64,000 nucleotides of DNA, taken from Anaerolineaceae bacterium. GTDB taxonomy: Bacteria; Chloroflexota; Anaerolineae; Promineifilales; Promineifilaceae. A model generated the notes under the pieces. It searched no databases and was not told the DNA's origin. It saw only the letters and a list, made by a program, of their open reading frames with translations. Position numbers and translations under genes: made by a program. The stretch covers positions 15,588 to 79,587 of the forward strand of contig PABI01000032.1 in NCBI GenBank assembly GCA_002699125.1, in the 5' to 3' direction. Shown in pieces: positions 39,986-43,867 of this stretch. Position 1 is the stretch's first letter, and each line of letters starts with the position of its first letter.

Positions 39986-42262
39986 ATGTCCTCACTTCTG
40001 ATGAACTTCTATCGCAAACGGCCGTTCTTGAGTCTGACCCTCATTTTTACGCTGCTGGCGGTGCTTTTCCTGCACCGGGTGCTGTTTCCGGCCGAGGGGA
40101 TGGCACTGGCGGGGCTGGATGCGCGCAGCTTGTTTTATCCGTGGTGGGAATTTGCGCGGACGGCCGTACGCTCCGGCCATCTTCCCCTGTGGGATGCCAA
40201 CAGCTTTAGCGGCTACCCTTTTTTGAGCAATCCGCAGGTAGCTCTGTTTTATCCGTTGAACTGGCCGCTGCTCCTGCTGCCGGTGCGCTTTGCCCTCAGC
40301 TGGCACGTGCTCATTCATCTGGTGGTGGCCGGGCTGGGAATGTTTTTACTGGTGCAGCACCTCAGTGGCAGTCGTGCCGGAGCGTGGTTGGCGGCGCTGA
40401 CGTTTGCCTTTAGCGGTTTTATTGCGGCGCGAATTTGGGCAGGACACATTGGCCTCCTTGCTACGGACGTGTGGCTGCCCTGGCTGCTGCTGGGCACAGC
40501 GTGGAGCGTCCAGCGGCGGAGTGTCTGGTCGGCGATCATCGCCGGCGTGCCGCTGGCCCTGGCGATTTTGGCCGGGCACACGACCTCACTGCTGTACATC
40601 GGGTTGATCTGGGGGCTGTTTGCCATTTATCAGTTATGGGTTAACCACAACCGCTGGCTCGTTGTGCGGCAGATGGCGATTATGACAGTGCTGGGTCTTT
40701 TGCTGGCCGGGGTACAGCTGGTGCCGCTGGCCGAATTTTCTTCCGTTTCCTCCCGCGCCGCCGAACCAACCTTTGAATTTGCCACGGCGTATTCATTGCC
40801 ACCATCGCACATCATCACCTGGCTGCTGCCGGAATTTTTTGGCGAGCCAACGCGGGCCGGCTACTGGAGCGTGCCCGCGTTTGACGAGCTGACTTACTAT
40901 GTTGGACTATTGCCACTGCTGGGAGTGGCAATAGCGCTGCGTAAACCATCGAAATTGGGCTGGTTTTATCTGGCGCTGGTTGTGCTGGGCTTTTTGCTGG
41001 CGCTGGGCAGCTACGGTTTTCTCTACGGCATCTTTTACGATTTGCTGCCGCCGTTCCGCCTGGCGCGGGCACCGGGGCGGGCGGCGTTTTTGCTGGTGTT
41101 TGCCCTGCCGGCGCTGCTGGGTGAAGCAGTGGCTCGATGGGAGCAGGTTGATTGGGGCGAGAAGCAGGTTGGTTTTATGCGCTGGCTGGTGGGGGGAACG
41201 GCCGTTGCCATCCTAACTTCTTTAGCCGCCACCGGGGCAGTGTTTGCGGCGCAACATCCCACAGGGACAAGCGGCCGTTTATGGCATCAACTTGGTGGGT
41301 GGGGAATTGCGCTAATTGGTGTGGTGGCTGGCGGTTGGCTGCTTGGGCGGTTTTTTGCCGAGAGGGATGCAGCGAAGAAAAAATGGTGGTTGGGCGGATT
41401 AACGCTGCTGCTGTTGGCCGATTTGTGGATCTTTGGCTTTAAATTGGTGCAGGTGGGGGGAACGGCCGTTGATCCGCTGTGGACTGATGCTAAACAAATC
41501 ATTGGTGAGACGGAGCTGCGGGTGCTGCCCTGGGGCATCTCCATTTTTGAGCAGAACGGCGCAGCACAGGTGGGTTTGGACTCTGTGTTTGGCTACAACG
41601 CGCTGGAGGTAGGGGCCAACATCGCTTTTGCCTCGTCGGTGCCCGATCCGCGCTCCACGGCATACGATATTTTGGGCGCGGGCACTGTTGTGTCCACGGC
41701 GCCGCTGCAAGGTGTTGAGGATGGGGAACGGCCGTTGCAGCTTTTAGGCAATACGGCGCGCGTCTGGGTTTACCAGCGGGGACGCACTTTGCCCCTGGCC
41801 CGGTTGGTGACCCAGGTAGAAATCATTCCCGATGCGGCCCAGGCTACAGCTCGCGTGCACCAGCCTGATTTTGACCCCGTAACCACAGCAATTTTAGAAG
41901 CAGAGCCGGATTGTGTTTTACCGGGCGGTGTTAGCGAGGGAACGCCTGCACTGAGCGGGGCCGAAGTGGCCGTTATCAGCGAAAAGGCCAACGGCTTCTG
42001 GCAAATTCAAACGAACAGCCCCACGCCGGCACTGTTGGTTCTAAGCGAGACGGCCTATCCGGGTTGGCGGGTGTATGTTGACGGGGTAGAACAAGAATGG
42101 CAGATAGCGTATACGGCCGTGCGCGCCACCTGTGTCCCAGCCGGGGAACACACAATCGAATGGCGCTACCAGCCGCGCAGCTATATGTTTGGCGGATTGT
42201 TGTCGCTGTTGGGATTGGTTTTGGTGGGAACGGCCGTTTTTATGGGGAGGCGTAAATCATGA
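39986..42262 (+). CDS. YfhO-family GT-C membrane protein
   Basis: SFSGYPFLSNPQVALFYPLNW near the N-terminus. The C-terminal ETAYPGWRVYVDGVEQEW...VPAGEHTIEWRYQP is typical of YfhO. Confidence 0.85.
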   Translation: MSSLLMNFYRKRPFLSLTLIFTLLAVLFLHRVLFPAEGMALAGLDARSLFYPWWEFARTAVRSGHLPLWDANSFSGYPFLSNPQVALFYPLNWPLLLLPVRFALSWHVLIHLVVAGLGMFLLVQHLSGSRAGAWLAALTFAFSGFIAARIWAGHIGLLATDVWLPWLLLGTAWSVQRRSVWSAIIAGVPLALAILAGHTTSLLYIGLIWGLFAIYQLWVNHNRWLVVRQMAIMTVLGLLLAGVQLVPLAEFSSVSSRAAEPTFEFATAYSLPPSHIITWLLPEFFGEPTRAGYWSVPAFDELTYYVGLLPLLGVAIALRKPSKLGWFYLALVVLGFLLALGSYGFLYGIFYDLLPPFRLARAPGRAAFLLVFALPALLGEAVARWEQVDWGEKQVGFMRWLVGGTAVAILTSLAATGAVFAAQHPTGTSGRLWHQLGGWGIALIGVVAGGWLLGRFFAERDAAKKKWWLGGLTLLLLADLWIFGFKLVQVGGTAVDPLWTDAKQIIGETELRVLPWGISIFEQNGAAQVGLDSVFGYNALEVGANIAFASSVPDPRSTAYDILGAGTVVSTAPLQGVEDGERPLQLLGNTARVWVYQRGRTLPLARLVTQVEIIPDAAQATARVHQPDFDPVTTAILEAEPDCVLPGGVSEGTPALSGAEVAVISEKANGFWQIQTNSPTPALLVLSETAYPGWRVYVDGVEQEWQIAYTAVRATCVPAGEHTIEWRYQPRSYMFGGLLSLLGLVLVGTAVFMGRRKS

Positions 42263-42453
42263 ATGGAAACAAACGAGCAGACATCAAAATCGGTCAGCAC
42301 GTGGCTATTGTGTTGAAGCAAGATCAGCGCAGCGGCAAACGTACTGAAGGCGTAGTGCAAGCGATCCTTACTAAATCGGCCACGCATCCCCACGGCATCA
42401 AGGTGCGCCTGAAAAGCGGTGCCGTTGGGCGCGTAAAAGAGATTTTGGAATAG
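42259..42453 (+). CDS. YwbE-family small conserved protein
   Basis: ATGA overlap with the YfhO gene. DIKIGQHVAIVLKQDQRSGKRTEGVVQAILTKSATHPHGIKVRL closely resembles Bacillus YwbE as I remember it. Confidence 0.8.
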   Translation: MNGNKRADIKIGQHVAIVLKQDQRSGKRTEGVVQAILTKSATHPHGIKVRLKSGAVGRVKEILE

Positions 42454-42559: not shown

Positions 42560-43867
42560 ATGGAATCGAATTTACAGTCTGTAGAACGAGCCCAGCTTCG
42601 CGACTTTTTAGTCAACCACTTTGGCCAGGATGAACTGGAACTGCTCGCTTTCGACCTTGGTGTGGATTATGAGCTGCTGAGCTACCACAACAAGCAGAAG
42701 CTTTCGCTGGAGTTGGTGGCTTACTTTGAGCGCCGCAATCGTCTTGGCTGTCTCTTAAACGAGGTAATTTGCCGTCGCCCGCTCAACAATCTAACGCACC
42801 TGCTGGAAAAAGTGCCTGCGTGCGCGCCCCTCACCAAAATCCAGATCATCAGCCACGCCAGCCCGGAAATCAGTGAAGAGATTGAAACTTTTTTGGAATA
42901 TCTGGCGCAAAAGCATGGTCTTAGCCGTGAAGAAATGAGCCTGATTGCCGTTGCCCAGGGCAGCTTGTATTTACTGCTTGGCCTGCCAGAGGCCAAGGCG
43001 CGTGCCCTGCAAAATTCTGGCAATGAATCGGTTGGTGACACTTTTGAAGCTACCGTTTTTGCTTCATTGTCTGGGCGCAGCCGGAATATTTGGCGCATGG
43101 TTGCTCTGGAATGGCCACCGGTCCTATCGCAAAATAAGCTGCTGCCCCGTATCACCTGGCAAAAAGCGGCCGAAATTCAACGGCTCAAAGAAAAAGACGA
43201 GCTGCTGCGTCGGCTGGTGGCCGGGAATCGATTTGGGGCACATGGTACGCGGACTACCCTGGCGGCATTGAGCGGCTACGCGCAGCTGTTGTCTTTAACG
43301 GCCGTTCCCGGTGACAAGCAGGCAAGCTACATAGACAAACTGGTTCAGGCGTCTGACGATTTGTCGGAAAGCCTGACCATTTTGCACAGCCTCATTGGTG
43401 CCAGAGAAGAGGTAGTTGCGATTCAGTCCGTGCTGCAATATTTGCTGCCAGATGTGACCCCCATTGCCGAGCAGTCCGGCATTCAACTGGACTTAGACGT
43501 GGCAGCCGGGCTGAGCACCAGCCAGCAGCACATCCGCTGTAATCTGGTTTTGTTGGCCCAATCAGTTCGGGCGCTGGTGCGCCAGGCGGTTTTTCGTGCG
43601 GGGGAAAACGGCCGTATCCAGCTCTCAGCCAGCCTGGAGGGCAATCAATTTGTGATTCAGGTACAAGATGAGGGTGAACCTATTCCTGCGGAGATAGCGG
43701 ACGCCGTTTTTGAACCGCAAGGGCAAGTCCATGATCCTGCCCAGGCTGGCAACAGTTTGAGCCTGGCTCTGGTGAAAATGTTGATTGAGCAAATGGACGG
43801 CAATATTTGGTTTGATCCAGGTGCCGGGCCGGGCAATACGTTTGGTGTTTCGTTTCCAGTAAGCTAG
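42560..43867 (+). CDS. Orphan histidine-kinase-like protein with EAD-like (death-like) N-terminal domain
   Basis: The N-terminal ~80 aa (ERAQLRDFLVNHFGQDELELLAFDLGVDYELLSYHNKQKLSLELVAYFERRNRLGCLLNEVICRRP) fits the effector-associated-domain pattern. DHp H-box AHGTRTTLAALSGYAQLL. The HATPase region has weak N and G2 boxes (no N-box Asn; GNSLSLAL). No TM segment and no adjacent response regulator. Confidence 0.75.
   Translation: MESNLQSVERAQLRDFLVNHFGQDELELLAFDLGVDYELLSYHNKQKLSLELVAYFERRNRLGCLLNEVICRRPLNNLTHLLEKVPACAPLTKIQIISHASPEISEEIETFLEYLAQKHGLSREEMSLIAVAQGSLYLLLGLPEAKARALQNSGNESVGDTFEATVFASLSGRSRNIWRMVALEWPPVLSQNKLLPRITWQKAAEIQRLKEKDELLRRLVAGNRFGAHGTRTTLAALSGYAQLLSLTAVPGDKQASYIDKLVQASDDLSESLTILHSLIGAREEVVAIQSVLQYLLPDVTPIAEQSGIQLDLDVAAGLSTSQQHIRCNLVLLAQSVRALVRQAVFRAGENGRIQLSASLEGNQFVIQVQDEGEPIPAEIADAVFEPQGQVHDPAQAGNSLSLALVKMLIEQMDGNIWFDPGAGPGNTFGVSFPVS

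Follow-up and report, generated by a model that had tools for sequence, protein, structure and literature searches.

An EAD7-containing module joined to an eroded histidine-kinase core in a Promineifilaceae bacterium

What would an effector-associated domain (EAD) do on a histidine kinase? EADs are a purely computational prediction of effector recruitment in bacterial NLR-like systems, and nearly all of the outputs predicted for them are destructive or structural. The question is raised by one gene in a 64,000-nucleotide stretch of DNA, here called the window, from an Anaerolineaceae bacterium (Promineifilaceae; GenBank assembly GCA_002699125.1, contig PABI01000032.1, positions 15,588 to 79,587 of the forward strand). 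A sequence-only reading of this gene had proposed an EAD of about 80 residues joined to a cytoplasmic, possibly degenerate histidine kinase. We find that the EAD, a member of the EAD7 family, is indeed there and that the earlier interpretation is supported, but that the conserved unit is larger than had been claimed: EAD7 is the first third of a 205-residue N-terminal module whose remainder lies outside Pfam coverage. The combination of this module with an eroded histidine-kinase core is undescribed, and represents a new architecture in a known kind of system. We read the protein as a soluble, docked and catalytically impaired kinase-like signaling output on an EAD7 network, and give this combined reading about an even chance of being correct.

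The N-terminal module and the kinase-like core

EAD7 is recognized over the full length of its Pfam model (positions 1-62 of 62), with a score of 58.2 bits (E 6.8e-16) where the gathering cut-off is 32. An AlphaFold2 model of residues 1-210, built on a 20-sequence alignment, presents the module as a single compact unit (mean pLDDT 89.5, pTM 0.87), in which the EAD7 helices (residues 7-20, 23-32, 37-40, 45-58 and 62-72; pLDDT above 90) are followed by a ferredoxin-like domain (strands 91-98, 127-133, 136-143 and 162-166; helices 104-118 and 144-153) and by a C-terminal part (helix 172-184, strands 188-190 and 193-195, helix 200-209). The last of these helices starts at W200 and leads, in the model, toward the dimerization and His-phosphotransfer (DHp) region of the kinase core. 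Invariant columns in our alignments A1, A3 and A4 mark the C-terminal part (F167, L170, W178, W185-P186-P187, P196 and W200), with the conserved W-P-P lying within the beta-hairpin. A Foldseek search of the 210-residue module against the PDB returned nothing at E <= 0.001, its weak matches being ferredoxin folds of the RRM and ACT types, and we consider the ferredoxin-like partner of EAD7 a candidate new domain family. A profile of the module (A5) also reached summed scores of up to 95 bits against TAL-effector repeats among PDB sequences. Nearly no single stretch is significant by itself, and we reject this likeness as a repeat-summation artefact, since our model places strands at positions that are helical in TAL repeats.

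The rest of the protein resembles the core of a histidine kinase, as the sequence-only reading had it. HATPase_c is matched well above its cut-off (residues 331-434; E 7.5e-13, 49.3 bits against 26.4), HisKA falls below its threshold (residues 227-270; 18.4 bits against 26.9), NCBIfam models show merely generic likeness to many sensor kinases over residues ~205-434, and PADLOC models gave no match. The earlier claim that the protein has no transmembrane segment, sensor domain or adjacent response regulator also holds: the best 19-residue Kyte-Doolittle window (1.3) is too low for a membrane helix, a Pfam scan finds no PAS, GAF or HAMP domain, and no response regulator is encoded within 45 kb, the nearest receiver domains on contig C34 lying more than 45 kb off.

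Motif positions were assigned by alignment to the solved kinases VicK (4i5s) and ZraS (9jfj), in both of which the phospho-acceptor His aligns with His228 (43241-43243), and the corresponding codon positions were confirmed. The H-box around this residue reads FGAHGTRTTL, giving H-G-T-R-T-T where class I kinases have H-[ED]-x-x-[TN]-P, so that Gly stands at H+1, a position normally acidic, and the Pro is missing. Degeneracy had been proposed from a missing N-box Asn and an aberrant G2 box, and both stand: Gln342 (43583-43585) takes the place of the Asn, and the GxGLGL position is G397-N-S-L-S-L402 (43748-43765). Further losses accompany them. The G1 DxGxG position is D370-E-G-E-P374, with Pro for the second glycine; the F-box position reads VFEPQG and lacks its second F; and, relative to the other family members, 5 residues are missing from the ATP lid. 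Of the 150 HATPase_c matches listed for the genome, that of the window protein ranks among the lowest. No close paralogue of the kinase core is encoded (best match 59.6 bits), and no DHp paralogue is detected at E < 0.01.

The architecture is common to 13 full-length orthologues, 51-77% identical to the window protein, and we compared motifs across the resulting 14 family members. His228 is invariant (14/14), as is Asp370, the Asp of G1 DxGxG, and the second G1 glycine is present in none (0/14). The residue at H+1 is Gly in 12 members and Glu in P0013 only. At the N-box, ten members have His and the window protein has Gln, with Asn found in P0012-P0014, the three most divergent. G2 is near-canonical (GSGLGL) in most members and degenerate in the window protein and P0012. 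The basal member P0013, which scores above the HisKA threshold, retains H-E, the N-box Asn, the F-box and GLGL, so that the ancestor was probably an active kinase. The distribution of motifs across the family points to such an ancestor, with the ATP-binding features eroding along separate paths from one branch to the next.

We propose that the window protein is soluble, probably dimeric and histidine-kinase-like, with the 205-residue module serving for docking in the position usually held by a sensor. The module would dock, most likely through EAD7-EAD7 contacts, onto EAD7-bearing STAND or Roc NTPases or onto adaptors with multiple EAD7 copies. Docking or clustering may then be relayed to the kinase-like core by a continuous helix that, judging from the models, would run from the module into the DHp helix bearing His228. 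In this lineage, Mg-ATP-binding and His-adjacent catalytic residues have been lost, whereas purifying selection has preserved the His, the DHp surface and the fold; the core itself therefore most likely no longer autophosphorylates. It may instead be a pseudokinase-type output toward an unlinked two-component partner, which it would bind, sequester, dephosphorylate or supply with phosphate, or it may act as an inactive-enzyme decoy. The EAD7 network would thereby gain an arm that is regulatory and non-lethal.

Table 1. Features of the gene and its product, with positions in the window.
Feature	Residues	Positions	Strand	Basis or remark
Whole gene	435 aa + TAG stop	42560..43867	+	ATG start; open reading frame list and translation
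Alternative TTG start		42548	+	
EAD7 domain, all-helical bundle	13-74	42596..42781	+	Pfam PF19960; genome scan gives the same interval
Ferredoxin-like beta-alpha-beta-beta-alpha-beta domain	91-166	42830..43057	+	AlphaFold2 model of residues 1-210; no Pfam model
C-terminal part of module: helix, beta-hairpin, start of connecting helix	167-205	43058..43174	+	Alignments, AlphaFold2
DHp region	206-285	43175..43414	+	Sub-threshold HisKA; VicK/ZraS alignment
CA (HATPase_c) domain, ATP-binding motifs eroded	286-435	43415..43864	+	Pfam, motif alignment

The EAD7 repertoire and the spread of the module

A docking module calls for something to dock onto, and other proteins with the same EAD, NTPases among them, had been predicted for this genome. 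They are abundant: a whole-genome scan finds 43 EAD7 domains, 41 of them above the Pfam cut-off, in 37 open reading frames (ORFs). Pfam scans of all 37 identify at least 11 STAND or Roc NTPases, namely a NACHT protein with transmembrane segments, AAA_16-TPR, STAND-TPR, a NACHT-like protein with an internal EAD7, nSTAND2, nSTAND1-WD40, NACHT-FGE-sulfatase, NACHT/NPHP3_N-CHAT with four tandem EAD7 copies, LRR-Roc-COR, NB-ARC-TPR and NB-ARC-WD40. Effector-type proteins comprise two with TIR (one of which also has FGE-sulfatase) and others with FGE-sulfatase, CHAT, Ham1 or AbiJ_NTD4, and the remainder include one protein built solely of four EAD7 copies, along with several membrane proteins and several proteins in which EAD7 stands alone. 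EAD7 occurs in all 61 family genomes sampled, with 1-41 matches each, and the maximum is reached in the genome of the window.

Several of these genes merit separate mention. Four tandem EAD7 copies occur in two proteins. One of them (L047, G000:C6:38110-41682) is the 1191-residue NACHT/NPHP3_N and CHAT protein; a CHAT-EAD7 protein (L056, G000:C6:46255-47724) is encoded 4.5 kb away, a histidine kinase and a single-domain receiver lie nearby (C6:35024-35929), and the locus resembles a hub within this network of EAD7 proteins. The other (L061, G000:C63:50917-52056) consists of four EAD7 repeats in 380 residues and nothing more, and is a candidate multivalent adaptor. Two unusual EAD7 partners are Ham1/ITPase, a nucleotide house-cleaning enzyme (L049, G000:C133:442-1257), and the Abi-related domain AbiJ_NTD4 (L035, G000:C32:105469-106494). 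Histidine kinase and response regulator genes lie near several EAD7 genes at a rate close to chance (about 150 matches of each listed per 8 Mb), and we do not use this proximity.

The module as a whole is widespread. A HMMER search with residues 1-205 gave 885 cluster representatives at E <= 0.001; among the best 150 of these, 114 match EAD7 together with the next ~130 residues, so that the module is present in at least 114 clusters. The match is nearly always N-terminal, and the C-termini vary widely. Among the 98 module clusters scanned with Pfam, EAD7 is found in 96, and the second part of the module has no Pfam match at all. Most regions that follow the module likewise lack a Pfam match, many of them having a predicted transmembrane helix; where a domain is recognized, it is TPR in 12 of the 98 clusters, Band_7 in three, and Pkinase, Peptidase_S24, ResIII or HATPase_c (histidine kinase) in two each. 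Within the family, some 20 of the 121 genomes have one or two copies of a match that reaches beyond EAD7, and 26 of the 121 have any module match at E <= 1e-10. In 300 other genomes sampled across the phylum, there is none at E <= 1e-12. The ferredoxin-like part has no paralogue in the genome of the window and is found there in the window gene only. Word-indexed searches for homologues, started from the N-terminal region or from an alignment, returned only the family of the window protein, and a metagenome locus scan gave 8 loci.

Individual fusions illustrate the range of partners. One protein (L081/P0027) joins the module to a canonical HisKA and HATPase_c kinase with the motifs SHDLRAPL, NLLGNA, DNGAGF and GTGIGL; its core is 29% identical to that of the window protein over 62 residues, a weak similarity that makes it probably an independent fusion. 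Others place the module on AAA_16-TPR (P0031), a Ser/Thr kinase (P0033), membrane-anchored beta-rich proteins (L073-L075) and, in one example, pentapeptide repeats. The closest relative of the window protein's module outside the orthologue family belongs to a module-Roc-COR-A-COR-B-EAD7 protein from a genome of the same genus (L095:8180-10648, genome G408), the two modules being 53-55% identical. We considered whether this protein occupies the locus of the window gene in that genome; it lies at a different locus. The module is also fused to region 4 of an ECF-type sigma factor (L077:1489-3018, genome G006), which would be a direct transcriptional output. In a further case it forms the N-terminus of a type I restriction R subunit, HsdR (HSDR_N and ResIII/SWI2_SNF2; L092:1483-3546, genome G386), encoded directly after a 487-residue ORF that by eye resembles a type I specificity subunit, HsdS; this arrangement suggests that a restriction enzyme is wired into the network.

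It is possible, if on the doubtful side, that EAD7 and the ferredoxin-like domain form a distinct, undescribed adaptor module that wires NLR-like STAND, Roc-COR and type I restriction proteins to signaling outputs such as a histidine kinase, a Ser/Thr kinase or an ECF sigma factor, in which case the window protein would be the phospho-signaling or transcription-control arm of the network, with a pseudokinase. An EAD7-linked histidine-kinase core would be a regulatory output, and may tie NLR-like immune and cell-death networks to phospho-signaling. The module relatives with an active kinase, a Ser/Thr kinase and an ECF sigma factor suggest that such networks may reprogram gene expression besides killing. 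That one more domain is coupled to an EAD is unsurprising in principle; it is the phospho-signaling output, together with the active-to-eroded series, that makes the EAD hypothesis experimentally approachable. The natural series of L081 (canonical), P0013 (near-canonical) and the window protein (eroded) is well suited to testing EAD7 control of a kinase.

Genomic setting, selection and competing explanations

The gene lies among housekeeping genes. Upstream are two YfhO-type membrane proteins followed by a DUF2196 ORF, about 100 nt after which the window gene begins; on its other side, it converges on the gene for a PD40-repeat protein, followed by an S9 peptidase and ffh. The DUF2196 ORF (42259-42453, 64 residues) overlaps the end of the YfhO-type gene before it by four bases (42259-42262), which suggests translational coupling of these two. 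Adjacent genes contain no second EAD7, a common though dispensable feature of EAD loci, nor does the window's part of contig C34, and the six neighbors scanned contain no MoxR AAA+, vWA or third component of a vWA-MoxR-VMAP/iSTAND ternary conflict system. Synteny from the window gene to ffh and farther on is conserved in three other metagenome-assembled genomes (MAGs), four genomes in all; there the window gene is 65-73% identical, the PD40 protein 72-79%, the peptidase 75-87% and Ffh 94-98%. Three near-complete congeners have none of the block that precedes ffh; synteny stops directly upstream of ffh, and no empty site can be defined in these congeners. The full-length gene is present in two of the 61 sampled genomes, that of the window and the congener G035, and orthologue-bearing contigs are labeled as Anaerolineae or Candidatus Promineifilaceae MAGs. 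Conserved synteny and patchy presence together indicate a lineage-specific accessory gene, vertically inherited in a subclade, rather than a member of a mobile defense island.

All four regions of the gene are under purifying selection. Approximate pairwise ratios of nonsynonymous to synonymous substitution (dN/dS) between the window gene and four orthologues are 0.03-0.06 for EAD7, about 0.25 for the middle part of the module, about 0.11 for the DHp and 0.15-0.29 for the CA domain. Column conservation follows a similar order (EAD7 0.89, DHp 0.87, CA 0.75). These values bear on the idea that the kinase half is a functionless, decaying relic and that the N-terminal module alone matters. Motifs do erode differently by lineage, P0012 lacking G2 and having the Asn where most others show the reverse, and truncated, module-only relatives exist (P0015 and P0016, from short contigs and possibly fragments). 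However, the low dN/dS in both DHp and CA argues that the kinase half is not decaying, the DHp columns are as conserved as those of EAD7, and no stop or frameshift interrupts any of the 14 family sequences; we consider the relic explanation very improbable.

Might the core, then, still be active? The protein could be a working orphan histidine kinase that uses the module as its input, binds metal-ATP with Gln or His at the N-box, and phosphorylates an unlinked response regulator once the module is engaged. His228 is invariant, D370 is kept and the CA domain is under purifying selection; L081/P0027, a sister architecture, and basal P0013 have canonical motifs; and among the receiver domains encoded in the genome, at least 150 in number, many are unpaired. 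Against this, four elements are altered together in the window protein (N-box, G1, G2 with the lid, and the H+1 acid), HisKA is under threshold, and HATPase_c scores near the bottom of the matches listed for the genome. The N-box Asn is required for activity in characterized kinases of this class, and we regard an active kinase as unlikely. Another view holds that the module is a conventional sensor, whose ferredoxin/ACT-like domain binds a small ligand in an ordinary cytoplasmic regulator unrelated to STAND systems. The fold of the middle domain, with its weak Foldseek matches to ACT and RRM, is what such a sensor might look like, and the housekeeping neighborhood, with synteny kept in four genomes, and the very strong conservation of the EAD7 part fit as well. 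What makes a ligand sensor quite improbable is the company that this domain keeps: it is seen only with EAD7, which scores in 96 of 98 module proteins, it has no EAD7-free paralogue in the genome, its module also sits on Roc-COR, STAND-TPR and HsdR proteins, all typical conflict-system cores, and no Foldseek match reaches E <= 0.001.

Our preferred reading, of a docked and catalytically impaired output on the EAD7 network, has several points to answer. To our knowledge, no EAD has ever been characterized experimentally. The EAD7 of the module is unusually conserved, unlike fast-diversifying conflict adaptors, and this strong conservation could mean a different, conserved partner; dS is also near saturation (about 1-2), which is why the dN/dS values are approximate. 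No cognate EAD7 stands out by pairwise identity, the window EAD7 being 19-41% identical to the others in the genome, with its best value of 41% inside the 31-54% range of best matches for other copies, and no EAD7 NTPase is encoded near the window gene. The retained Asp370, the near-canonical G2 (GSGLGL) of most members and the change from Asn to His at the N-box leave room for residual nucleotide binding within the family. Finally, the full-length AlphaFold2 model is of low quality (pLDDT 61.6 overall and under 50 in the DHp, against 72-89 in the CA domain), which weakens the case for a continuous helix from module to DHp.

Comparison with known systems

EADs were defined, and homotypic coupling of effectors to core NTPase systems proposed, by Kaur et al. 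(2020, eLife 9:e52696, PMC7159879). In that paper, EAD7 is placed in the effector-recruiting class, inactive enzyme domains are described as common effectors in such conflict systems, and the authors state that they found no histidine kinase among the vWA-associated effectors; the supplement, in its text form, contains no EAD7 or HisKA entries. A later study places EAD7 at the N-termini of STAND-FGS (FGE-sulfatase-like) and TRADD-N proteins (Kaur et al. 2021, eLife 10:e70394, PMC8195603). Set beside these statements on effectors, the sequence-only description of a kinase as an unusual output was fair. Beyond these two papers, our literature search found none that joins "effector-associated domain" with "histidine kinase"; two others touch on EAD7 briefly, and no experimental work on EAD7 came to light.

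The window protein shares with EAD-coupled effectors a terminal EAD7 on an enzyme-like domain, in a genome with many more EAD7 copies on STAND and Roc NTPases and on TIR, CHAT and FGS proteins. The Promineifilaceae (Anaerolineae, Chloroflexota) are a filamentous lineage, and such a host fits the described bias of these systems to multicellular prokaryotes. Unlike these effectors, the fused domain is a histidine-kinase core, and the EAD7 sits in a larger fixed module with a ferredoxin-like domain, of which the passages of the Kaur papers used here make no mention. The gene also lies outside a core-system operon, in its housekeeping neighborhood, with its EAD7 under strong purifying selection.

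With class I kinases such as VicK/WalK and ZraS, the protein has in common the DHp-CA order, the aligned His, a HATPase_c match above threshold and an N-terminal input region from which a helix leads to the DHp. It differs in lacking the N-box Asn, the second G1 glycine, the second F of the F-box, G2 and the H+1 acid, as well as a nearby response regulator, and its input would be a docking module rather than PAS, GAF or HAMP. DivL (4q20) and RetS (6dk7) are both among the sequence matches to the kinase core. Both proteins act by binding rather than autophosphorylation, and combine a conserved DHp with altered catalytic features. By analogy, a DHp that is kept while catalytic features are altered suggests signaling by protein contacts in the window protein as well. 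DivL has Tyr in place of the phospho-acceptor His, whereas the window protein retains the His; and, unlike in DivL and RetS, no heteromeric partner kinase is evident, the DHp being without a detectable paralogue in the genome.

A last comparison is with the Death, CARD and Pyrin adaptors of animals. Like these, EAD7 is a small helical bundle proposed for homotypic effector recruitment to STAND NTPases, an analogy drawn in PMC7159879 and PMC8195603, and the literature speaks of "structural parallels". The top 50 Foldseek matches of the whole 210-residue module include no Death-fold entry. If the adaptor-module reading is true, the window protein would be a bacterial parallel, built on a pseudokinase, to the way in which adaptors recruit kinases in the innate immunity of animals.

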